Part shown: in pieces, positions 1 through 58,561 of the stretch | Numbering within the stretch: the stretch's first letter is position 1 | Layout: each line of letters begins with the position of its first letter | Sequence record: MT150133.1 | DNA length: 64,000 nucleotides | Origin: Enterobacteria phage vB_EcoM_IME540 | Reading direction: 5' to 3' (one strand) | The notes under the pieces: generated by a model | Told to the model about the DNA's origin: nothing | Database searches by the model: none | What the model saw: only the letters and a program-made list of their open reading frames with translations | Translations under genes and position numbers: made by a program

Positions 1-609
1 TACGGCCTGGCCAGTTTCCTTAGAAACATAAACTTCGCCAACTTTAGACTCAACCTTAGTATAAAGCTCGGCATCAATTTCAGGCATACCCTTAATATCT
101 TCAATATTAGTGCCACGACGTACTAAAAGAACATAGGTATGTTTTCCGGTGAATTGGTACATGGCATCAACAACTTTAAACTTACCACCAGTACGAGCCA
201 TAGCTAAACGAGCTAATACACGCTGAACAGTAGGACCCTTACCTTTCATTTTCTTGGTAGGGAACCGGAAAAGAACTGCATCCATTTTAAGTTTGTTTAC
301 TTGTTCGTATACAGTATCAAAAATGGTATTCAGCGTACCAAGTGGGTCAGAACCTAACCCACCTTTCAACTCGGCTGGGCTACCCTTAGCAGACAAACTC
401 ATCAAAATAACATGAACATATTTGTCTCCGGGCTTAACCATTTTAATAGCGTCTCCTTGAGACGCATAAGATACCATACGAGCAACCAGGTTATCATTAC
501 CTGGCGCTTTAATAGAGAAAATCTGTGGGATACCGGAACCTGGTTTAAGATTTATTACTGGATAGTTTTTATCGGAATCACTATCAAAAACCTCGTTTAA
601 ATTTTCCAT
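1..609 (-). CDS. Alt-family ADP-ribosyltransferase paralog, N-terminal 203 codons; gene continues beyond window start
   Basis: ATG at 609 on minus strand, in frame to position 1; my translation (MENLNEVFDSD...KMKGKGP...YQFTGKHTY...) is clearly homologous to the N-terminus of the adjacent 694-aa Alt-like ORF; nucleotide similarity of 1-200 to 2100-2300. Confidence 0.7.
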   Translation of the reverse strand, partial: MENLNEVFDSDSDKNYPVINLKPGSGIPQIFSIKAPGNDNLVARMVSYASQGDAIKMVKPGDKYVHVILMSLSAKGSPAELKGGLGSDPLGTLNTIFDTVYEQVNKLKMDAVLFRFPTKKMKGKGPTVQRVLARLAMARTGGKFKVVDAMYQFTGKHTYVLLVRRGTNIEDIKGMPEIDAELYTKVESKVGEVYVSKETGQAV

Positions 610-612
610 TAT

Positions 613-2697
613 TTACCCTTGGATGAATTTTTCTGGGATGTCATAGAGGTCTATGCATGAAGCCAAAAGAGGCAGTACATCAAACCGTGTAGATTTAACA
701 AATGAATCAAAAGATACGGGGCTTTCGGAAGTATCGAAGTCATCTTGATATACGACCAACTCGCCGGTTTCCATTAGTACGTCACCATCATATACCACAG
801 ATTCTTGAAGCTCATCTGTTGTCATAACTTCAGCTTGGATGAGTTTTGTATTACTAGATGTTGTTCCATCATTATTAGAAGCATCTGTTATTTTATTAAC
901 TTTGACCATTAATCCACGCGGTAGAATAACTTCGGCTTCAGTTGCTATTCCGAGATTTCCTGGATATACGACATTAACTTTATGAGCCCCATCAATGGCC
1001 CATCCTATTTGAACCTTAACGTAATCGGGATTTTCCTTATACGCTCTTATTTCATTAGGATTAATAGTTATTCCTTCTTCATTTTTATCAACTGTCAATT
1101 CGTTGCGAACTTCCGGTTCTAAAAGACCAATACCAGCGTGCGTAACACCAAAACGTCCGAAAATTATAGGAGTTAAAGAAGTAGATACAAAATTTCTAAA
1201 ATAAAACACTTTATTTTTAACTAGTGCTTCGTATATAGGAGCAGTCATACTCTGGGCACGATAAACTGTAATGCCTTCCGGTATACGGTCACCATTTTCA
1301 AAAGCTGAATCTAAATTATTTACAGCGGATTCGATATCTTTTTCGCTCATAACCTCATAGTTCTGAGGATTATAACGTCCTAAAAGAAGATTATTTATGT
1401 CTGTATATCCTGAACCACAATATTCTCTGATGCCGCGCTTTTGTGATGGGGTATATTTAGAGCCCTCACGAGCAATAGTAATATCGACCATAATACCACC
1501 ACCTACACCAGCAAAACTATACACACGTTTTTTAATGAACTTAGTCTTGGCTGCTTTCCACTTGGACTCGGTTAATTCATTCCAGACGTCGTCAGGTTGG
1601 CCTTTACGAGTTCTGTTATGGATAGCCAGCCACTCGCCTTTATATTCTTCGAAAATGGTATTAATGGTAGAGGCATATTTTTCCAGGGCTTTAACAGATG
1701 TCAAAGGTTCATTTTTGATAGCTGTAAGAATTTTCTCTTTAATTTTCTCTTGGATTTCACCAATACCGTGAAGTGGGAACAATTTATAGTCGTAATGCAA
1801 TTCTTCAGCAGTGCCTTCAGCTACTATATTAGCAACCTTATTTTTAGCCGCAGGAGAATTGTTATTAGTGACCATTTCCTGGGCCTCAGGGATTAATGGA
1901 ACTGTTGCCGGTTTATTAAAATCTACTGCAGTAGCTTCATATTTCTTAAACAGCTCACTTTCATTACGATAAGATTCTAACGATTGACTTGCCGCAATAG
2001 CACGTCGAGAAATCTTAGTCTTGGTTATAACCATTTTATCAGTGCGACGTTCTTCAACCTTAGCAATACTACCGGCGATAGCAGTTTCTTTAGTAACCTG
2101 CACGCCTTCTTTTTTAGAAATATAAACTTCACCGACATCAGAATCTACCTTAGTATACAATTCAGCATTAATTCCAGGCATACCTTTGATATCTTCTATA
2201 TCAGCTTGTTTACGAACTACCAGGATGTAAGTATGTTTACCGGTAAATTGGTACATAGCCGGAACTACTTTAAAACGTCCACCTGTTTTCTGTGCTACCA
2301 AACGTTGGATAATCCGTTGAACGATAGGGCCTTGACCTTTCATTTTCTTAGTAGGGAAACGGAACATCACGGCATCCATACGAAGCTTTTTAACTTGGTC
2401 ATAAACCACATCAAAAATAGTATTAATCGCATCTACGGGAGTAGGGCCTAGGCCACCTTTAAGTTCGGCAGGCGAACCTTTAGCTGAAAGGCTCATAAGG
2501 ATAACGTGGGCATATTTATCACCCATCTTAACCTGTTTAATAGCATCACCTTCAGAAGCGTAGGATACCATACGCGCCACTAATTGGGATTCTGCGTCAC
2601 CAATCTTCCAAATCTGGGGTACTTTAAGTTTTGGGTTCAAGTTTACTGTAGGCAGTGTGCCTTCGGACTCAAACACTTCATTTAATTGTTCGGTCAT
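613..2697 (-). CDS. alt: Alt-like ADP-ribosyltransferase (virion-packaged ART of T4)
   Basis: 694-aa ORF; length and position next to ligase match T4 Alt (682 aa); C-terminal region has ART-like motifs (YRAQS...FVSTSL); identification from memory of T4 Alt. Confidence 0.75.
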   Translation of the reverse strand: MTEQLNEVFESEGTLPTVNLNPKLKVPQIWKIGDAESQLVARMVSYASEGDAIKQVKMGDKYAHVILMSLSAKGSPAELKGGLGPTPVDAINTIFDVVYDQVKKLRMDAVMFRFPTKKMKGQGPIVQRIIQRLVAQKTGGRFKVVPAMYQFTGKHTYILVVRKQADIEDIKGMPGINAELYTKVDSDVGEVYISKKEGVQVTKETAIAGSIAKVEERRTDKMVITKTKISRRAIAASQSLESYRNESELFKKYEATAVDFNKPATVPLIPEAQEMVTNNNSPAAKNKVANIVAEGTAEELHYDYKLFPLHGIGEIQEKIKEKILTAIKNEPLTSVKALEKYASTINTIFEEYKGEWLAIHNRTRKGQPDDVWNELTESKWKAAKTKFIKKRVYSFAGVGGGIMVDITIAREGSKYTPSQKRGIREYCGSGYTDINNLLLGRYNPQNYEVMSEKDIESAVNNLDSAFENGDRIPEGITVYRAQSMTAPIYEALVKNKVFYFRNFVSTSLTPIIFGRFGVTHAGIGLLEPEVRNELTVDKNEEGITINPNEIRAYKENPDYVKVQIGWAIDGAHKVNVVYPGNLGIATEAEVILPRGLMVKVNKITDASNNDGTTSSNTKLIQAEVMTTDELQESVVYDGDVLMETGELVVYQDDFDTSESPVSFDSFVKSTRFDVLPLLASCIDLYDIPEKFIQG

Positions 2698-2751: not shown

Positions 2752-2934
2752 TTAAAGTACTAACAGCGTACGGTACACTTCAAATTTAGGACCCTTTTCA
2801 TAGCGGTCGAAATTATCTTTAAAATCAGCGAACGCGATTTCATTTTCAAATTCAAGGACAATTTGGGACACTGCAGTGGAGACATCCCCACCTTCTTTAT
2901 ATCCAATAACCACGGTTTCTAAATAAGCTTTCAT
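2752..2934 (-). CDS. hypothetical small protein
   Basis: ORF track 2752..2976; start trimmed to ATG at 2934, directly after the ligase stop; start uncertain. Confidence 0.3.
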   Translation of the reverse strand: MKAYLETVVIGYKEGGDVSTAVSQIVLEFENEIAFADFKDNFDRYEKGPKFEVYRTLLVL

Positions 2935-2935
2935 A

Positions 2936-4459
2936 TTATAGACCAGTTTGAGACCAATCACCGAATACATCTTCAAATGTATCAGCTTCTGTTTTATCGA
3001 AACGCCAACCTTTAATGATTGGAAGGAAAATACCTACAGTATCAGTACGTCCTTTAGAATGAACCCAACCATTACATTCACAGTCAGCAATACGTCCAAT
3101 CAACTTACCTTCACGAGCTTGTTTCATAAGAAGTTCACGGTCTAAATCAGGACGGTCTTCCAATGGAATCAATACCTTTTTACCTGATTTATCTTTCTTA
3201 TGGGTAGTATCTTTAAAGCCTGAACCACAGTCACTTGTAATTCGACGACAACGTGATACTAACTCAACACCACCTAGTTTGTTAGGGTCCTTCGAGTGTT
3301 CATAATAACCTACCACTTCTAAAGCGATATCGATTACTTCTTTGAACTTGATAAGATTCTTAGAACGGCGGTTTTCCCAGTAGGAGTCCATGTTCTTAAG
3401 GATAATGCCTTCCAGACCTTGGTCGACATATTTCTTATAAACGACTTTAGCTTCTTCAAGATTATTAACCCACTGGTTTTCGATAGCTTCAACACGCGTT
3501 GTGCCATGCAATACGACATTATGAGCCACCATAAGTTCTAAGGCTGTAAAGCGTACATCATACTTATCGCCTTTAATTTTGCCTTCAGAATACACGACAT
3601 CCAGTGGGACATAATCCCATGCCTGTAATACCATACCAGCGGCTTCAGTAGCCGAAATAGTTCCTTGAAGAGCCTTATTAGCCAATCCATTTGACGTAGA
3701 ACGATCGGCGACAGTTTGGAATTCCTTAGCCTTACTTAATTCAGGAAGTTCCTCGTCAAACATACTAAACAAATCATTAGATGCTTTAGGTTCTACCTTA
3801 GGAGTATGGTAAACTAATTCGCCATCAATCATAACGCCATTAGGATGGCGTTGTCGAGCTTCTTCGGTCATGGCCATTAATTCAGCCGCCAAAAGATTAA
3901 GCCCTTGATATTCGTTACCACCACGAGTAAGGAATGTCACACCATCGTTACGAACTTCGGCAAAACAACGAGCACCATCAGCTTTTAATTGAGCAAACGC
4001 TGGCCATTTAATATTTTTCTTAATCAAAGCTTCATCATAAGAACTCGCCAACATCTGCGGTTGTTCAGGGATTAAACCTTTCCAAACCTTGTTAGCAATA
4101 GAAATCGATGCACCACATTCAAGGTCGCGCATCATTACACGACGTAATACCTCGGCATCCGGGGCCTTAGCATCAGCAATGATTTGAGCCAGTTCTTCAA
4201 TAGCCGCATTACCCGTAATCTTACGTGTGGCTAATGTGAATTCAGCGAAATCAAGAAGGTCTTCAAGAGTAATCATACCAAAGGATTGAGATGTAAATCC
4301 AGGTTCTGGCCACTTTTTAATACCGTAGTTCAGACGACGGGTATAAGCCATACGATAAACACGTTTCAGAAGCTCATTGTCCTTTTCACGAGCAATAATG
4401 GCTTCTTTAGCTTTAGTAGAATCAATAGCAGCAATTTCGTTTAAAATATCTAAAATCAT
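2936..4459 (-). CDS. 30: ATP-dependent DNA ligase
   Basis: Strong resemblance to T4 gp30 (MILDILNEIA..., KADGARC adenylation motif); start set at MILD ATG rather than the upstream ORF-track start. Confidence 0.92.
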   Translation of the reverse strand: MILDILNEIAAIDSTKAKEAIIAREKDNELLKRVYRMAYTRRLNYGIKKWPEPGFTSQSFGMITLEDLLDFAEFTLATRKITGNAAIEELAQIIADAKAPDAEVLRRVMMRDLECGASISIANKVWKGLIPEQPQMLASSYDEALIKKNIKWPAFAQLKADGARCFAEVRNDGVTFLTRGGNEYQGLNLLAAELMAMTEEARQRHPNGVMIDGELVYHTPKVEPKASNDLFSMFDEELPELSKAKEFQTVADRSTSNGLANKALQGTISATEAAGMVLQAWDYVPLDVVYSEGKIKGDKYDVRFTALELMVAHNVVLHGTTRVEAIENQWVNNLEEAKVVYKKYVDQGLEGIILKNMDSYWENRRSKNLIKFKEVIDIALEVVGYYEHSKDPNKLGGVELVSRCRRITSDCGSGFKDTTHKKDKSGKKVLIPLEDRPDLDRELLMKQAREGKLIGRIADCECNGWVHSKGRTDTVGIFLPIIKGWRFDKTEADTFEDVFGDWSQTGL

Positions 4460-4469
4460 AATCACCTCA

Positions 4470-4748
4470 TTAGTCATGGATTCTATTATAAGCCACATCA
4501 GCCAAAAGCAAGTCTAATCGCTTATGATAAGAGAACACAAATCTCATTCGCCCATCAGATTTGAACTTGGACATAAAGTGGACATAAATGAATCCCTGTT
4601 CGACGCATTCGCGCCAAACAGGATGGTCTTTAGCCGGATTTACATCAAATGAGTAATCATGATTCACATGACGAATAAACTGGTTTACATGACCATAATC
4701 CATTGTAGTGGTAGGACCATAGTCTGAAATTGTATGAACTACAAACAT
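4470..4748 (-). CDS. hypothetical protein
   Basis: ORF track; start set to ATG at 4748, one base after the stop of the upstream HAD-like gene. Confidence 0.4.
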   Translation of the reverse strand: MFVVHTISDYGPTTTMDYGHVNQFIRHVNHDYSFDVNPAKDHPVWRECVEQGFIYVHFMSKFKSDGRMRFVFSYHKRLDLLLADVAYNRIHD

Positions 4749-4749
4749 A

Positions 4750-5388
4750 TTAACCTCGAGCAATCCATTCAACTGCGGCATTATTACGAAGGGATTCGAT
4801 TGCTGCGATATCGTCCCATGAATTAACCTTTACGGCTAAATTAGGTTTAAAGTCACGTTCACCACGAGCTAACCAATAAACTTGGATATCCATGAGAACA
4901 TTAGATGCAGCATCACAGTGGTGAGCCAAATCATCAACATAAAACTTAATACGTTTACCGTACGTATTTTTAGCTCTTATGAAGAGGTCTTCTTTTGATT
5001 CTGAATGACCACACATCAGAATCTCCTTGAATGCGCCAGGGAACAAAGCATTCAAATTGAATTGTCTATTCAGCAGGGCATCAATTGAGTCGCCTAGCGC
5101 AGTCACGGCTACAAAATCGAAGTCTTTTTTGAGCCTGTTGATATGTTTTAATGCGTCCATGTAAGGAGACAGATAACGAATAAAATCTGACTGATTATAT
5201 TTCTCGATTAAACGAGCGCCTAATTCATTATCACAATTAAACAGCTCGCCTGGAGATAAGAAACGTTCGTCCTGAATCATATTCAAAATATGTTCTAAAG
5301 GCAAATTATATTTCTGTGCGAAATAAGGCAAGCCGGACTGCCAACTTAAACATACTCCATCGATATCTGTTAAGATAACTGGTTTCAT
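4750..5388 (-). CDS. HAD-superfamily hydrolase-like protein
   Basis: N-terminal ILTDIDGV motif typical of HAD motif I (DxDG); 212 aa. Confidence 0.5.
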   Translation of the reverse strand: MKPVILTDIDGVCLSWQSGLPYFAQKYNLPLEHILNMIQDERFLSPGELFNCDNELGARLIEKYNQSDFIRYLSPYMDALKHINRLKKDFDFVAVTALGDSIDALLNRQFNLNALFPGAFKEILMCGHSESKEDLFIRAKNTYGKRIKFYVDDLAHHCDAASNVLMDIQVYWLARGERDFKPNLAVKVNSWDDIAAIESLRNNAAVEWIARG

Positions 5389-5852
5389 AATAAATCTCTC
5401 AATTTGTTTAGGATGTCGATAAACTCTTTTTCAGTTAGTATTGTATCACATTCTGTAAGGTGGCTCGCCATCGAATGCTTTAAAACTTTGCCCTTTGTAG
5501 CTTGTAATGCGTCGCGGAATCCTTTGTTTTGGAGCGCTGCTTCAAAATAAGCATTTGTATACAACTCTTTCCATGATGCAGAGTATCTTGAAAAGGGAAT
5601 TCCAAGCCAGAACAGCGTCCCACGGTCCGCAGCTCTAGCATAAGCTCTTCCAGTTTGTTGTGCGGCCAGACCGGACATCCCAAATATACGTTTTTGTTGT
5701 TCATGATTTCTCACCTTACATCCTTGGAGGAATCCTTCGAGCCCACCAAATTGGATACCATCCATAACGAAAGGCCATTTAGCAAAGTTACTTAATGCAC
5801 ACGATGGCCATGGAAAATTGCTTCTTATTTCTAACTCAGACATCTTTGACAC
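5385..5852 (-). CDS. NADAR (YbiA/DUF1768)-like protein
   Basis: LSNFAKWPFVMDG segment resembles the conserved SNFAAWP..DG core of E. coli YbiA; 155 aa, typical NADAR size. Confidence 0.55.
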   Translation of the reverse strand: MSKMSELEIRSNFPWPSCALSNFAKWPFVMDGIQFGGLEGFLQGCKVRNHEQQKRIFGMSGLAAQQTGRAYARAADRGTLFWLGIPFSRYSASWKELYTNAYFEAALQNKGFRDALQATKGKVLKHSMASHLTECDTILTEKEFIDILNKLRDLL

Positions 5853-6048
5853 TTATAATTTCGACATCAGCCCAATGACCATAACCAGGTAGACGGTCTT
5901 CAATAGATAATCCGCCATCAGATTTCAGCATTTTAATTGTTTTAGTATATGGTTCATCTTGCGGATGCACAGGAGATAAATCAGTTACACGATAAGTCAC
6001 TTCGACCATTTCCGTACCTAATAATTTCTGAATCAATTTCTTAAACAT
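5836..6048 (-). CDS. hypothetical protein
   Basis: ORF track, compact minus-strand operon context. Confidence 0.4.
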   Translation of the reverse strand: MFKKLIQKLLGTEMVEVTYRVTDLSPVHPQDEPYTKTIKMLKSDGGLSIEDRLPGYGHWADVEIISVKDV

Positions 6049-6049
6049 A

Positions 6050-6244
6050 TTATCCTCGCTTTAAACATTTGATTACAGACAGTTCACCGCCCATGCGAAC
6101 GTCTTCAGTTCCATCGACCCATAGGACGGTGTAGGCTTCTTTAATAGTAACATTACCTAATTTAAAAGCAGGTAGAACCTTTGAAATCATTCCAGGAATA
6201 CCTACGCCTTTTAACTGGACTGTTTGCGATAAAAATAGTTGCAT
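6050..6244 (-). CDS. hypothetical protein
   Basis: ORF track, abuts neighbours. Confidence 0.4.
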   Translation of the reverse strand: MQLFLSQTVQLKGVGIPGMISKVLPAFKLGNVTIKEAYTVLWVDGTEDVRMGGELSVIKCLKRG

Positions 6245-6572: not shown

Positions 6573-6938
6573 TTAGATGTCGAATTCGTTCAGAACTACA
6601 TCAAAGATTGCTTCCAGGTGTTCAGGTTTAGCTCGGTTGCTCAGGATGTGACGAATCCAAGTTTTAACCAGAAGCTTACGATTAACACCGTTCCAGCAAG
6701 GATGGGTACCTAAATCACGTTGACGGAAATCATCATCTAAAGCGATTTTAAAAGTAGAACCTTCCATTGTGATTGAAACCGTAATACCATTTTCAAAGCG
6801 CATATAAACGTAGTTAGGAGTCATGCACTGTTCGATTTCGCACACCGCGCCGTTGTTGTGTTTCCACAGGCAAATAACTTCAGAAGAACCAGCGATACCG
6901 TTAGAAACATATTTACGTTCGAAGTTGATGTAGTTCAT
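6573..6938 (-). CDS. hypothetical protein
   Basis: ORF track; own early promoter and GGAGAA Shine-Dalgarno upstream. Confidence 0.5.
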   Translation of the reverse strand: MNYINFERKYVSNGIAGSSEVICLWKHNNGAVCEIEQCMTPNYVYMRFENGITVSITMEGSTFKIALDDDFRQRDLGTHPCWNGVNRKLLVKTWIRHILSNRAKPEHLEAIFDVVLNEFDI

Positions 6939-6974
6939 TTTATTCTCCAGTTTGTTTTCGTATTATTTGGTACA

Positions 6975-7010
6975 GGTCTATAATAACACAACCTGTACCA
7001 AAGTAAAACA
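6975..7010 (-). promoter_or_regulatory. early promoter (T4 early type)
   Basis: TTTTAC, 17 bp, TG-extended TATTAT on minus strand; ~35-nt leader with GGAGAA to ATG at 6938. Confidence 0.45.
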
Positions 7011-7011
7011 T

Positions 7012-7344
7012 TTATTTCACAACATTCCAATTTTTCATATCAAGTTTACCAACTTTTTTCATCTGAGCAATCAGACGTTCAGCACGTGTACGGGCATTAA
7101 CATAATAGAATTCACCATTTTTGTTTTCTTCAATACGACCAGTAATTACAGTTTTCAGTTCATAAATCCAACCTGTAAAGAAGTTGTGAAGCTCGATGGT
7201 GAATGTAAAATCAGTACCCATACCTTCAGTTGTTTCAACTTCGATGATATCACCTTCAACTGCAGTCAGGACCCACATGGTTTCTTGATATTCACCGTTG
7301 AAACATTTAGCTTTAACAGATGCATTCAGATTTACAGTTTTCAT
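7012..7344 (-). CDS. hypothetical protein
   Basis: ORF track; own early promoter; 5' leader duplicated with that of 6573..6938. Confidence 0.5.
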   Translation of the reverse strand: MKTVNLNASVKAKCFNGEYQETMWVLTAVEGDIIEVETTEGMGTDFTFTIELHNFFTGWIYELKTVITGRIEENKNGEFYYVNARTRAERLIAQMKKVGKLDMKNWNVVK

Positions 7345-7382
7345 TTTATTCTCCAGTTTGTTTTAGTATTATTTGGTACATG

Positions 7383-7416
7383 TCTATAGTATCATGCCTA
7401 CCGGAGATGTACACCC
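7383..7416 (-). promoter_or_regulatory. early promoter
   Basis: GTGTAC, 17 bp, TG-extended TACTAT; directly downstream of the 7443..7460 terminator. Confidence 0.5.
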
Positions 7417-7442
7417 TTTTTTAAAGATTTAGAAACAAAAAT

Positions 7443-7460
7443 GGGACTCCGAAGAGTCCC
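7443..7460 (-). terminator. rho-independent terminator
   Basis: GGGACUC-UUCG-GAGUCCC followed by AUUUUUGUUUC, directly after the 53-aa ORF stop. Confidence 0.7.
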
Positions 7461-7465
7461 ATAAC

Positions 7466-23105: not shown

Positions 23106-24011
23106 TTATAGACCAGCTAACAGGTCGTCCAGACCATCGTCATCAGAAGGACTTACTGACGGCTCAGGAGTAGTGGAACGAGTCGGTGTAGATGGTTTAG
23201 AATCATATGCATCAAGGTCTGCACTGAATGCGTCCAGGTCATCACCAATCTTATCAGCGGCTGCAGAAGCTTTAGCGGCAGCACCACCAAGAGCAGCTGT
23301 ACCAACAACTTTCTTAAACTTGGCTTCGTTAGTTTCGAATGATTTGAAATCGAGCAGTTTAGAAAGGTCGTGCATTTCTTCCATCAATTTAGCTTGGTAA
23401 GCTTCATCATTGATGTTAGGAATTTCAGACTGACCCATGAATTTGGAATCGTCGTAGTTCTTGAAGTCGCCAACTTTCTTAGATTTCAGTACGAAGTTCG
23501 CACCATCAAACGGACATGTTACGTCAACCGGCACTTCACCAATATCAGTATCAACTTCAACCATCTGGTTGATTTTATCCATAATTTTCTGACCGAAACG
23601 GAATTTAAACACTTTACCTTCGTTAGCAGGTACTGCACTATCCTTAATAACAAGGATGTTAGCCCAGAAGGAAGTTTTACGTTTCATCAGTTTGTATTCG
23701 GCATTATTAGTATTAAAGGTATCATTCTGGTTCATGTATTTACATACAGGACATGAATCGAAATCACCATGAGTAGACGTACATGATTCGATATACCACT
23801 GACCATTTTTCTTAAAACCATGGTTAACAAGCTTAACGAATGGGGATGGATTAGCTTCGTTTTTCGAAGGAAGGAATCGAATAACTGCGGTTCCTACGCC
23901 ATTGTCATCTTTCAATTTCCATTCGGATTTGTCATCAGACGAGAAAGAAGAGCCACCTTTCATTGCAGACAGTTGAGCAGCAAGTTCAGCAGGATTACGG
24001 CGTTTAAACAT
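23106..24011 (-). CDS. 32: single-stranded DNA-binding protein
   Basis: Near-colinear with T4 gp32 (MFKRR...AVIRFLPSK...acidic C-terminus); start at MFKRR. Confidence 0.92.
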
Positions 24012-24060
24012 AGACATATTATTTACCTTATTTGATATATTTAATAAATTTATTAACAGT
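24012..24060 (-). promoter_or_regulatory. gene 32 5' leader, candidate autoregulatory translational operator
   Basis: A/U-rich unstructured leader (TTAATAAATTTATTAAATATATCAAATAAGGTAAATAAT before ATG) like the T4 gene 32 operator. Confidence 0.4.
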
Positions 24061-24115
24061 TGTTGTTATCACGTTTACCTTGATAACTAGGTTTTGAAGA
24101 TGAAGTAATTATATA

Positions 24116-24733
24116 TCACTTCGAATAAAGCATTTTTAACTTAATGAATTCAGGGTCATCATTAGGAACCCAACCCTCATTAAATTGTTTAATCATACTC
24201 TTTGATGTAGTTTCACTAACATTTATACCAGAGTTAATGAGACGCCTCCATCCACAAGCTCTTCCACTAGAATTAATTATACAATAATTAGTATAAGCAA
24301 TATCACTAAGCATCCAATCTAAAGGGTTTGCTCTAGAAGTTTTCCAAGGACGGTAATCGGGTTGATTCATATAGTTAGCAGCTTTCATATGGGCTCTAAC
24401 TTCAGGACGTTTGGCTGGGTGAGTGCATCCAAAGACTCCAAATCCGCCACCGGCATAAACCAAATTAAAATAATCATCATTATCTCTAGCTTGAACTTCC
24501 AATTGTTCTGAACGTTCAATATTAATAACAATATCAAATGGCGTTATAGCCAAAATTTCAACAATAGGTTTTTCTTCTTCGATGGCCTCTTTAAATCTTG
24601 ATTGCTCGCAAGAGGTCCAATACTCTTTACCTTTACAGTCAATAATCACGCCATTTTCAAAAGTACAATTAGTTTTAGAACCTATGTACGAAAACGGCTT
24701 AATATTATTAGCCTGACGATTAAGCCAAGTCAT
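24116..24733 (-). CDS. unassigned protein between genes 59 and 32
   Basis: ORF track 24116..24760 (track start is TTG); first ATG at 24733; no Shine-Dalgarno seen; no family recognised by eye. Confidence 0.5.
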   Translation of the reverse strand: MTWLNRQANNIKPFSYIGSKTNCTFENGVIIDCKGKEYWTSCEQSRFKEAIEEEKPIVEILAITPFDIVINIERSEQLEVQARDNDDYFNLVYAGGGFGVFGCTHPAKRPEVRAHMKAANYMNQPDYRPWKTSRANPLDWMLSDIAYTNYCIINSSGRACGWRRLINSGINVSETTSKSMIKQFNEGWVPNDDPEFIKLKMLYSK

Positions 24734-24747
24734 TTTATAAACTATAT

Positions 24748-25401
24748 TCAAAATTTGCAACCCTTAATTGTTTCGATGAACAATTTACGAGCTTCTAAAT
24801 TATCAATTATAAGAATTTTCTTATAAGCATTTAATTTAGTCGAATACTTAGACCACACTAAATCGTTGGTCTGTTCATCATGTTTATCAATTATATCCAT
24901 AAATGAATCAAGCAAAATAAACGTTTCGAATGAAATAACATTCGATTGAAGGAGCTTAAAAATATAGCTCGAGTTAACTTTTTTATTATAATCAAAAATT
25001 TCAGAAAGCGCTTGAACTTCCACTTTCTTACTAAAATAATAAATGTTTTTGATATCATCCTCAAAAACTTGTTTTATTCTTTTAAGTCTACCGATATATT
25101 CTCGGTAAAAGACTAAGGCGTCAGCATCACTGATGTCGCCAATCCATGCGTCTTGGTTAGCCACCAAGTTACTCATGAAGATAAGAGCAAGCTCTTTCAA
25201 AGTGTATTTATCACTCAATTTCTCAAAGAAATATTTGTCACGACGTTTTTGATAAGCCGTATCAGAGATTCGCATGACCCAGTTATATTTGATAACGTCG
25301 TATTTGGCGTTGAAGTGATGCTTAAGTTGCAAATATAAAGAATACACGCTCTTACCATTCACCATACGATTATTGTTTGGCGGCATACGAATCTTAATCA
25401 T
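24748..25401 (-). CDS. 59: helicase loader / gp59
   Basis: 217 aa, near-colinear with T4 gp59 (MIKIRMP...YDVIKYNW...ANQDAWIGDISDADALVFYREY). Confidence 0.9.
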   Translation of the reverse strand: MIKIRMPPNNNRMVNGKSVYSLYLQLKHHFNAKYDVIKYNWVMRISDTAYQKRRDKYFFEKLSDKYTLKELALIFMSNLVANQDAWIGDISDADALVFYREYIGRLKRIKQVFEDDIKNIYYFSKKVEVQALSEIFDYNKKVNSSYIFKLLQSNVISFETFILLDSFMDIIDKHDEQTNDLVWSKYSTKLNAYKKILIIDNLEARKLFIETIKGCKF

Positions 25402-26080
25402 GATATTTCCATCCAGTCCACTTATCGCTTTTTAATCTGTAACTAACCAAACTATTGGATATTCCGAATTTGGAAGCCACTTCAGAACATGAATCATAAC
25501 ATATTCCATCGATAAGCAATTTCTTTTTGTATAAGTCTTTAAAAGATTGTGGCCTAGGTCCTGTATTTGCCTTAAGAAGAGCAGCTCTTGTACTATCAGG
25601 CATTTTAGGTCCTTTCTTACCTGCTCTGGATTTACTTAGAGCTTTTCGATGTGCATCGGTAAGATTAATACCTTTATTTGGTGAAGGTATATTTCTAAGT
25701 CTTCTTGTTATAGAAACTTTTTTACAAACACTATCAGGTCGTGGAATACCTAATTTAGATTTACTTATAGCAAGTTTATGTTCTTCAGATATTTTCTTAC
25801 CAAGTCCACCTTTACCGCCAACAACCAAATTATAAGTATTCGGGTCTGAAACAAATTCTTCGTTAACGAGTTCTCGCTCTTTATCAAAGGCCTCCTCTTG
25901 GGAATCCATAACAAAGAGAATTTCTTTTTCAAAATTCTCTATACCATGTTTTAATATAGCCTTCTTAATTAACTTACCTGAACCCATATAATGGTCATGG
26001 CGTTTGGTTTCTTTATGCACACCGATATAAATTTTACCATTCAATTTATTGGTTACTTTATATACGGTGTGTTTAATCAT
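25394..26080 (-). CDS. GIY-YIG homing endonuclease (Seg/I-TevI-like)
   Basis: VYKVTN...GKIYIGV GIY-YIG core, NUMOD3-like repeats, C-terminal region resembling the I-TevI DNA-binding domain; ATGA overlap with gene 33 stop. Confidence 0.8.
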   Translation of the reverse strand: MIKHTVYKVTNKLNGKIYIGVHKETKRHDHYMGSGKLIKKAILKHGIENFEKEILFVMDSQEEAFDKERELVNEEFVSDPNTYNLVVGGKGGLGKKISEEHKLAISKSKLGIPRPDSVCKKVSITRRLRNIPSPNKGINLTDAHRKALSKSRAGKKGPKMPDSTRAALLKANTGPRPQSFKDLYKKKLLIDGICYDSCSEVASKFGISNSLVSYRLKSDKWTGWKYHD

Positions 26081-57322: not shown

Positions 57323-57937
57323 TCAGTAAGAAAGAACGGAAAGATTCCAAATGGTGTAATTATTCCATTTAGGATTTCTCTCAATAGAGTCTATGCGCAG
57401 CGTAGTTCCCGCAGGGAACATCATCTCATCTTCATCATTGATTAATTGTAAGTTTGCTACACGGGTAGATTCAGGAAATGCACCTGGGAACTCTTCAGGG
57501 GGCGCGGCACATAACATTTTAAAGATTTCTTCCTGATAATTGTACACAAATGGTGCATCATTAATACAAAAGATATTAAATGTGCCGTAGAAGTTATAAG
57601 ATGCGAAGTTACGAGCTACATTGAAATCTTTTGAGAAGCTCATTACTCGGTCGAATTCAATTACGGCACCTACACACATAGTAGATTCAAGATATGCCAT
57701 AGTCTTCTTAGAAATCCCACGGTACAACTTGTCAGGCACTGCAGAAGTCAGGTTCTTACGAATAATTTTGTTCAGAGTTTCCTGGATATTATCTGGTTTA
57801 TTTTCCATGCACTGCCAGAGGGTACTCTGTTCTAAATCAGAATACACCTCATCAATTTCTATCTGAGTATTCTCACGGAAATCATCGCATTTGGCATTGT
57901 TGATAAATTCTGCTAATTTATGGCTTGGATATAACAT
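57323..57937 (-). CDS. Mod-like ADP-ribosyltransferase (ModA/ModB family)
   Basis: R-S-ExE type pattern (LYRG, SFSKD, acidic EDEMMF) and position after srd/dda as in T4 modA/modB. Confidence 0.65.
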   Translation of the reverse strand: MLYPSHKLAEFINNAKCDDFRENTQIEIDEVYSDLEQSTLWQCMENKPDNIQETLNKIIRKNLTSAVPDKLYRGISKKTMAYLESTMCVGAVIEFDRVMSFSKDFNVARNFASYNFYGTFNIFCINDAPFVYNYQEEIFKMLCAAPPEEFPGAFPESTRVANLQLINDEDEMMFPAGTTLRIDSIERNPKWNNYTIWNLSVLSY

Positions 57938-57957: not shown

Positions 57958-57994
57958 GAAAGATAGTACCACAAGCTTCCTTGCCTGTAAACTA
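57958..57994 (-). promoter_or_regulatory. early promoter for Mod-like gene
   Basis: GTTTAC/TTTACA, 17-18 bp, TACTAT. Confidence 0.5.
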
Positions 57995-58561
57995 AAAATC
58001 CAACATTTTTAAATGAATTGTTTTATACTCGATTTCGTACGGGTCTCTTTTGACGGTTTCGATTGCAACAATCTCAAATCGCGATTGGCTGGAGACCATG
58101 AACTCACATTCAGTTTCAACCATATCATAGAGGTCAATACGAGTTTCATCAATTTCAAGGTCGTCTACATTCCCTGCAAGAACAAGGTCGATAGCATGGT
58201 TGTAGTAGTCGAAAATGAACGGTGCATTCCTGAGACTTAAAATGGTTTTGGTTCCGTATTCCCATGCCCCTGCAAACTGACGAGCCTGAGAGTATTGTGT
58301 ACTAAAAGAAGTAACGCGACCAGGAGACCATTGACACCCAACAGAAAGAACTTCAAGTTGCTCAAGTTCTCTGGTGGTAATCCCACGATAAAGCTCTACC
58401 GGAACCGCTGAAGTAACATGCTTACGAACTAGCTTATCAAGGTCGTAATGTAAGTTAGGGTCTTTTTTGGCATCTAGACATTTTTCTAAAAGATTCTGTT
58501 CGTGTTTTGAGAATTTGGAATTGATTCGGTCTTGATAAAGACATTTTTGTTCGATGTTCAT
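57992..58561 (-). CDS. Mod-like ADP-ribosyltransferase (ModA/ModB family)
   Basis: LYRG, TSFSTQYSQAR, ECEFMVSS motifs; paralog of adjacent gene. Confidence 0.65.
   Translation of the reverse strand: MNIEQKCLYQDRINSKFSKHEQNLLEKCLDAKKDPNLHYDLDKLVRKHVTSAVPVELYRGITTRELEQLEVLSVGCQWSPGRVTSFSTQYSQARQFAGAWEYGTKTILSLRNAPFIFDYYNHAIDLVLAGNVDDLEIDETRIDLYDMVETECEFMVSSQSRFEIVAIETVKRDPYEIEYKTIHLKMLDF

Follow-up and report, generated by a model that had tools for sequence, protein, structure and literature searches.

The closest described counterpart of the NADAR gene considered here is gene 30.3 of phage T4, for which the function has been established experimentally and is already known. T4 gp30.3 strips ADP-ribose from modified guanine (G-ADPr) in DNA in vitro (PMC11125620), and it does not remove the cytidine-linked modification, C-ADPr (PMC12945103). 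The protein was renamed AdfN (anti-DarT factor NADAR) in 2025 after genetic mapping; it confers resistance to DarTG1 on T-even phages and is required for growth in the presence of that system (PMC11825919). In phage RB69, which is sensitive to DarTG1, the allele is frameshifted 15 residues before its end and lacks the C-terminal helix, and expression of T4 adfN suffices to rescue this phage (PMC11825919). Rescue is weaker with the E36A and K43A substitutions, the former of which also eliminates activity in vitro (PMC11825919). AdfN-T4 is fully effective only during infection by a T-even phage – a T-even protein has been suggested as a requirement – and it fails to detoxify DarT1 in uninfected cells (PMC11825919). 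A preprint on transposon sequencing of T4 confirms the role of 30.3 against DarTG1: insertions in the gene fell from 261.0 to 0.7 mean reads on a DarTG1 host (log2FC −7.25, q = 0); the T4 macrodomain protein AdfM (tk.4) counters DarTG2 (10.1101/2025.11.20.689424).

The window analyzed here is a stretch of 64,000 nucleotides from Enterobacteria phage vB_EcoM_IME540 (MT150133.1). Megablast of bases 2900–6100 of the window gives an identity of 99.5% with Escherichia phage vB_EcoM_FB and of 98.8% with Dhakavirus WG01, and on the basis of its sequence the window is that of a Dhakavirus-type, T4-like coliphage. A NADAR gene and a HAD phosphatase gene lie side by side in it. In all probability these are neighbors in a block of early genes and not the two steps of a pathway: AdfN would remove ADP-ribose from DNA, and the HAD protein would be an independent, NT5C-like phosphatase.

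The gene order of the block is the same as that of the 30.9-to-alt region of T4 (comparison with T4 and WG01). On the minus strand the genes run 30.4, 30.3, 30.2, 30.1, ligase (30), alt.1, Alt, and a second Alt. The ortholog of T4 gene 30.4 (5836..6048, 70 aa, PHROG 2042, E 3.6e-34) is followed by adfN, the ortholog of T4 gene 30.3, which encodes a stand-alone NADAR domain of 152 aa (5385..5843), and by the ortholog of T4 gene 30.2, which encodes a HAD phosphatase of 212 aa with a helical C1 cap (4750..5388). The 30.1 ortholog (DUF3045, Pfam PF11243, E 5.9e-16) is at 4470..4748 in an ORF that extends to 4781, and the ATP-dependent DNA ligase (DNA_ligase_A_M, E 1.5e-23) is at 2936..4459 in an ORF that extends to 4498. 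An Alt-like ADP-ribosyltransferase of 694 aa is encoded at 613..2697 (Pfam ADPrib_exo_Tox, E 3.8e-36; PHROG 802, E 2e-263). The second Alt paralog starts near 604 and is cut by the window start – it is recognized by a paralogous N-terminus in the translation of 1..640 – and WG01 also has a tandem pair of Alt genes. A previous sequence-only reading of this DNA had placed the NADAR-like and HAD-like genes immediately upstream of ligase and the Alt genes, and that order is approximately right, except that 30.1 and alt.1 lie in between.

The 155-aa ORF at 5385..5852 (−) includes LSNFAKWPFVMDG, and the 212-aa ORF at 4750..5388 (−) includes ILTDIDGVCLSW; both ORFs are real, and both contain the motifs quoted for them in that reading. 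The start of 30.3 was set by the T4 and WG01 annotations and an alignment of homologs: it is the ATG at 5843 and not the upstream GTG at 5852, giving a protein of 152 aa with the N-terminus MSELEIR. The 30.1 gene likely starts at the ATG at 4748, just past the 30.2 stop; counted from MFVVHTI on, gp30.1 is 43% identical to T4 gp30.1. The likely start of the ligase is the ATG at 4459 (MILDIL), with GAGGTG just ahead of it, and the WG01 ligase is annotated as a gene of 507 codons.

Genes in the block lie close together: from 30.7 to alt.1, the distance between neighbors is −41 to +8 nt. The stop codon of 30.4 and the start of adfN are in an 8-nt overlap (ATGTCTGA), 30.3 and 30.2 overlap by ATGA, and 30.2 and 30.1 are one base apart. 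The packing and the ATGA overlap fit co-transcription of these genes and translational coupling of 30.3 and 30.2. Upstream of 30.7, at 7007..6980 (−), there is a promoter-like site, TTTACT-16-TATTAT with TG, enclosed by a 12-nt perfect inverted repeat (6966–6977 and 6991–7002). This region (6934..7011, −) is likely an early promoter within a stem-loop, judging from the motif and the repeat, and could drive the block through alt.1. Co-transcription of the NADAR and HAD genes, which the sequence-only reading had stated as a fact, is plausible given the gaps, the overlaps and the promoter-like site. A late-promoter motif, TATAAATA, is no more frequent in the window than expected by chance, and none is found within the 30.x early block. 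An overlapping ORF, 30.3’, was considered as a possible coding region and rejected – outside the T-even-type alleles this frame is closed, and its identity is 61%, compared to 86% for the main frame. The ATGA overlap of 30.3 and 30.2 is also compatible with a functional link between them, which is a point against their independence.

The window 30.3 gene is, from its sequence, the ortholog of T4 gp30.3/AdfN. Its product matches PF08010 (Phage_30_3) with an E-value of 3.8e-64 and 215.1 bits, far above the cut-off of 36, over positions 2–138 of the 138 in the profile. It aligns with T4 gp30.3 without gaps to the last residue, with 130 of 152 residues identical (86%), and none of the 22 substitutions is in an invariant column. 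E36, K43 and H123 are all present, and are invariant in an alignment of 11 sequences including T4; among 62 homologs, neither E36 nor H123 varies, and at least 90% have K43. An AlphaFold (AF2) model made from the homolog alignment has a pLDDT of 94.8 and a pTM of 0.89. Its top three matches in the PDB by Foldseek are YbiA (2b3w), PnNADAR (8bau, a Phytophthora NADAR with ADP-ribose bound), and the G. lovleyi NADAR (8bat), and nothing else in the PDB was matched with a probability above 0.06. The C-terminal helix is intact – it spans residues 138–151 in the model, and the alignment to T4 is unbroken to the end. A direct search of the sequence against the PDB was marginal (YbiA, E 1.2), profiles of close homologs added little, and NCBIfam yielded nothing useful, with only a weak match of the NADAR to TIGR02464 (E 0.1).

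The NADAR-like assignment in the sequence-only reading is thus confirmed by family, fold and catalytic residues: the profile match is strong, the model has the NADAR fold, and the three residues are retained. Because the window gene is an intact ortholog of the T4 gene – 86% identical, full length, and with Glu36, Lys43 and His123 kept – we infer the same function for it. The obvious prediction is that the window AdfN is a guanine-ADP-ribose DNA glycohydrolase that would protect against DarTG1.

The product of 30.2 is a HAD-superfamily phosphatase with a C1 cap. The 212-aa ORF matches PHROG 420 with an E-value of 1.4e-70, and is 74% identical to T4 gp30.2 over the catalytic domain, with the same motifs and the same position in the genome. 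In 56 homologs, D8 and D10 of motif I, K132 of motif III and D152–D153 of motif IV are invariant, while at least 90% of them have T96 of motif II, and the protein has a Rossmannoid core with an inserted cap. T4 gp30.2 has 278 aa, with an extra C-terminal tail of low conservation, compared to the 212 aa of the window protein; the tail varies widely among homologs, which have lengths of about 196 to 347 aa. The sequence-only reading had called this protein a HAD-type hydrolase, and the four catalytic motifs agree with that assignment, which can be refined to NT5C-like.

The similarity to NT5C is found mostly at the level of profiles. The window gp30.2 does not reach the cut-off of the Pfam NT5C family, PF06941 (13.8 bits vs 24.8), and this family has only weak matches, in 10 of the 56 members of the gp30.2 family. 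Profiles of the gp30.2 family alone (A2, A3) reach deoxyribonucleotidases at E-values of 0.05–0.8, and a direct search of the gp30.2 sequence against the PDB was marginal (cdN, E 0.31). The gp30.2 family aligns with a HAD family of ca. 200 aa from environmental (marine) viral contigs (hhalign 99.9%, E 5.4e-34). About half of this intermediate family have precomputed PF06941 matches, and 3 of 10 that were tested pass the cut-off. Its profile has human mdN and cdN as the top matches, at full length, with an E-value of 1.6e-7. The link to NT5C became significant only by way of this viral family.

An invariant tryptophan, W16, is found eight residues after the nucleophile, and aligns with the Phe of the ‘DMDGVLADF’ motif in deoxyribonucleotidases. 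In mdN, this Phe stacks on the nucleobase. W16 hints at a nucleobase pocket in gp30.2 as well. From the transitive profile link, which is solid, and the alignment of W16, gp30.2 is read as an NT5C-like nucleoside-monophosphate phosphatase, and we assign nucleoside monophosphates as its probable substrate class with moderate confidence. A consideration against a dNMP phosphatase is that a phage that hoards dNMPs would have no obvious benefit from it. In T4, all 72 of 72 sites in 30.2 were hit by transposon insertions on K-12, making the gene non-essential, and insertions were neutral in minimal medium (log2FC −0.10; transposon sequencing, 10.1101/2025.11.20.689424). A literature search on ‘gp30.2’ found no paper.

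The mechanism we propose has the two proteins acting separately. DarT1, the toxin component of the host's DarTG1 system, would ADP-ribosylate guanines in replicating phage DNA, and AdfN would cut ADP-ribose off the guanine at the N-glycosidic bond, restoring the base so that replication goes on. Independently of AdfN, gp30.2 would act as a Mg-dependent HAD phosphatase with D8 as the nucleophile and D10 (Asp+2) as the acid/base; as a divergent relative of the 5’(3’)-deoxyribonucleotidases (NT5C), it would most likely dephosphorylate a nucleoside monophosphate. The adjacency of 30.3 and 30.2 would be due to both lying in the same packed block of early genes upstream of ligase.

If AdfN has a partner in this block, the better candidate is gp30.4, although we consider it unlikely that gp30.4, and not the HAD protein, is the real partner of AdfN, a T-even-specific factor for the full activity of AdfN-T4. 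Only 30.3 and 30.4 were significant genome-wide among T4 genes on DarTG1, 30.4 being the second, with a log2FC of −1.79 and a q-value of 0.014 (10.1101/2025.11.20.689424). In the fetched loci, every homolog of gp30.4 (21 of 21) immediately precedes a T-even-type NADAR gene, and loci with a HAD gene but no NADAR gene keep 30.5, 30.6 and 30.1 yet do not have 30.4. There are 721 phage records with gp30.4, compared to 730 with a T-even-type AdfN (at least 60% identity). The window gp30.4 is 46% identical to that of T4, a fast-evolving protein of 70 aa, which limits the detection of its homologs. Help from gp30.4 would, if real, explain why AdfN-T4 is restricted to T-even infection. A simpler account is that polarity or a loss of translational coupling lowered the expression of adfN and produced the 30.4 signal.

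A different substrate for the NADAR is very unlikely. It might mainly degrade soluble derivatives of ADP-ribose – immune signals, by-products of RNA repair, or riboflavin intermediates – and not act on DNA, as was proposed from comparative genomics before the biochemistry was done (PMC9503650). NADARs of the YbiA type are N-glycosidases acting on riboflavin intermediates, though the TIGR02464 match here is the weak one given above, and the inability of AdfN-T4 to counter DarT1 in uninfected cells would fit a soluble substrate (PMC11825919). However, T4 gp30.3 removes G-ADPr from DNA and a catalytic mutant is inactive (PMC11125620, PMC11825919), and loss of 30.3 specifically sensitizes T4 to DarTG1 (PMC11825919). 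The window copy, at 86% identity, has the same active-site residues.

The sequence-only reading had suggested that the pair could act as an anti-defense or repair module. We give little credence to such an idea, in which the NADAR and HAD proteins would form a two-step module for ADP-ribose processing or repair, one anti-defense unit alongside ligase and Alt. The HAD phosphatase would then process what AdfN sets free, be it ADP-ribose or an ADP-ribosylated nucleotide. ADP-ribose lacks a phosphomonoester group on which such a phosphatase could act, which counts against this scheme. The arrangement of the window, with the ATGA overlap in a single packed early-gene block, is in its favor.

The conservation of the linkage was examined by searching HMMs of both families against all ORFs of 160 loci fetched around homologs of either gene. 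A NADAR gene was found within 4 kb at 12 of 28 close gp30.2 loci, abutting at 6 of these and within about 1.5 kb at the other 6. Where the genes are close, the NADAR gene is always upstream and on the same strand, as a module would predict. However, the remaining 16 loci have no NADAR gene within 4 kb, and neither do any of the 52 distant HAD loci. About 19 of 80 NADAR loci have a HAD gene close by, while about 60 have no partner within 4 kb, and in several T4-like genomes the two genes are about 58 kb apart. Over the 160 fetched loci, adjacency is conserved only in the T-even phages and in a small number of other clades. Among 150 neighboring ORFs at ca. 30 distant HAD loci, the 25 commonest Pfam families do not include NADAR, Macro, Nudix or ART, which also argues against the module. 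The commonest families there – PhoH, clamp-loader ATPases, radical SAM, and MazG – are characteristic of marine T4-like phages.

The two genes have homologs in 1,437 and 1,509 phage records, and both are near-universal in T4-like phages. Their counts by genus are almost identical; co-occurrence in nearly the same genera could be taken as support for a module, but it is as expected from shared ancestry alone. The gp30.2 phosphatase is near-universal yet dispensable in T4-like phages.

The decisive evidence is genetic. Insertions in T4 30.2 were neutral on DarTG1 (71 sites, 271.5 vs 249.8, log2FC −0.12, p 0.61, q = 1), whereas those in 30.3 were lost (10.1101/2025.11.20.689424). This difference indicates that the two genes share a neighborhood and not a pathway, and, with the linkage at 12 of 28 close and 0 of 52 distant loci, the module is not sustained. 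The full activity of AdfN-T4 only in T-even infection had led to a phage cofactor being suspected (PMC11825919), which could have lent the module further support. gp30.2 was considered as this missing T-even cofactor, and was ruled out by the T4 transposon tables and by the unconserved linkage.

The sequence-only reading had also described the phage as carrying an unusually rich ADP-ribose toolkit, including two Mod-like ADP-ribosyltransferases. The ORFs at 57323..57937 and 57992..58561 both match PHROG 832, ‘RNA polymerase ADP-ribosylase’, and are therefore Mod-like, as it had said. The toolkit is not unusual – Alt, ModA, ModB and gp30.3 are the normal complement of T4, and the only addition is the second Alt paralog, which is also found in Dhakavirus WG01. 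Alt makes protein-arginine linkages, unlike the substrates of NADARs. That the NADAR has a housekeeping role, reversing off-target ADP-ribosylation by the phage’s own Alt, ModA and ModB, is hardly credible: it would explain the position near alt in early-gene blocks and the four ADP-ribosyltransferase genes within the window, but in many T4-like genomes the NADAR gene is far from alt and 30.2, T4 tolerates the loss of 30.3 on K-12 (27 of 28 sites hit), a host in which its Alt and Mod are active, insertions in alt have no effect on DarTG1 (10.1101/2025.11.20.689424), and the known substrates of NADARs are N-glycosides of guanine and cytosine (PMC11125620, PMC12945103).

With AdfN read as a DNA glycohydrolase and gp30.2 as an independent phosphatase, both genes can be given names. 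For the phage studied here as well as its relatives in GenBank, 30.3 is labelled ‘hypothetical protein’, and can be named adfN (anti-DarTG1 NADAR ADP-ribosylglycohydrolase); 30.2, also labelled ‘hypothetical protein’, can be named an NT5C-like HAD phosphatase. The biological picture is unchanged, as T-even phages are already known for the layered anti-DarT factors AdfA, AdfN and AdfM.

Compared to the NT5C enzymes human mdN (1mh9) and cdN (2i7d), gp30.2 has the same HAD core, four-helix C1 cap, and ‘DxDGV’ motif with an aromatic residue at nucleophile+8. It differs in that identity in the structural alignments is about 17–18%, and the cap and the specificity residues are largely unlike those of NT5C.

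The window NADAR and the DarG1-type NADARs (8bat) and YbiA (2b3w) have a common core fold, with Foldseek TM-scores of 0.57–0.68, and a common Glu/Lys catalytic pair, at an identity of about 16–19%. The G-ADPr hydrolase chemistry of the DarG1-type NADARs is also shown by the T4 ortholog (PMC11125620). The phage NADAR is the bare core, whereas DarG1 has an added N-terminal extension (PMC12945103). The residue of the last strand is His in the phage NADAR, Asp in DarG1, and Glu in YbiA (PMC11125620). Unlike the DarG1 antitoxins, the phage NADAR has no linked DarT toxin gene, and the T4 protein, unlike DarG1, is no antitoxin in uninfected cells (PMC11825919). The nearest known counterpart of the window NADAR is AdfN of T4. 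The window copy comes from a Dhakavirus and not, like that of T4, from a Tequatrovirus, and has its 22 substitutions, but the two have in common the position between 30.4 and 30.2, the length of 152 aa, E36, K43 and His123, the C-terminal helix, and the predicted fold.

The adfN allele of the window, the T4 gene 30.3 orthologue encoding a NADAR protein (5385–5843, minus strand), is intact. Several truncated or frameshifted natural alleles occur in close relatives (database proteins P0133, P0135, P0136 and P0139). These alleles include a fusion with the 30.3’ frame and an allele from UGJNEcP4, a close relative whose 30.2 is 98% identical to that of the window. Loss of adfN seems to be recurrent, the frameshifted allele of RB69 being one case.

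The 30.3’ frame itself lies within adfN. The window has an ATG-initiated ORF of 74 codons in the +1 frame (5480–5704, minus strand), and the corresponding ORF in T4 is annotated as 30.3’. This frame is open solely among T-even-type alleles, and its identity to the T4 counterpart is 61%, compared to 86% for the main adfN frame. By these two measures, openness across alleles and identity to T4, the 30.3’ frame shows no evidence of being selected to code for a protein.

The start of adfN overlaps gene 30.4 by 8 nt. This gene (5836–6048, minus strand) encodes a protein of 70 amino acids of unknown function. In the published T4 transposon-sequencing tables, 30.4 was the sole gene besides 30.3 with significant depletion on the DarTG1 host – the cause may be either polarity or a functional partnership with adfN. 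The distribution of 30.4 follows that of T-even-type adfN among the fetched loci and phage records.

A different NADAR subtype, ca. 40% identical, is found in a number of T4-like genomes of the Klebsiella, Yersinia and Enterobacter types, where it is ca. 58 kb away from gene 30.2 (spacing from the same-contig locus pairs L009/L134, L017/L153, L014/L154 and L023/L112). This suggests relocation or independent acquisition. The homologues of gp30.2, a HAD phosphatase, differ widely in both the length and the sequence of their C-terminal tails, with total protein lengths of about 196 to 347 amino acids; some tails have a ‘TGIEYL..QPTA’ motif in common. The tail is almost absent from the window protein (4750–5388, minus strand; T4 30.2 for comparison, L002 6475–7311).

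Two copies of a 55-nt direct repeat, 93% identical, are upstream of 30.7 (6934–6988) and 30.8 (7340–7394). The copy preceding 30.7 includes a stem-loop (6966–7002), a perfect 12-bp inverted repeat around a -10-like TATTAT, and presumably resembles the ‘promoter-early stem-loop’ cassettes of T4-type genomes. Between 30.9 and 30.8 is a strong terminator-like hairpin (7441–7462, minus strand), a 9-bp GC-rich stem followed by TTTTTGTTT. Within the 3’ end of 30.1, shortly upstream of the ligase start, TGCTTTTGG-N-TATAAT (4485–4510, minus strand) resembles a MotA-dependent middle promoter, and this candidate could give ligase a separate transcript. Elsewhere in the window, GC content falls to 0.33 at about 24000–26000, and GC skew becomes positive between about 28000 and 38000, where the genes are presumably transcribed as a block from the opposite strand.

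The gene alt.1 (2752–2976, minus strand) matches the Pfam family PF24647, ‘Phage blade protein’ (E 9.1e-29). T4 has a single alt and the remnants alt.-1 and alt.-2. The window has two tandem Alt paralogues (1–604, interrupted by the window edge, and 613–2697, both minus strand); its Dhakavirus relative WG01 has two full Alt genes.
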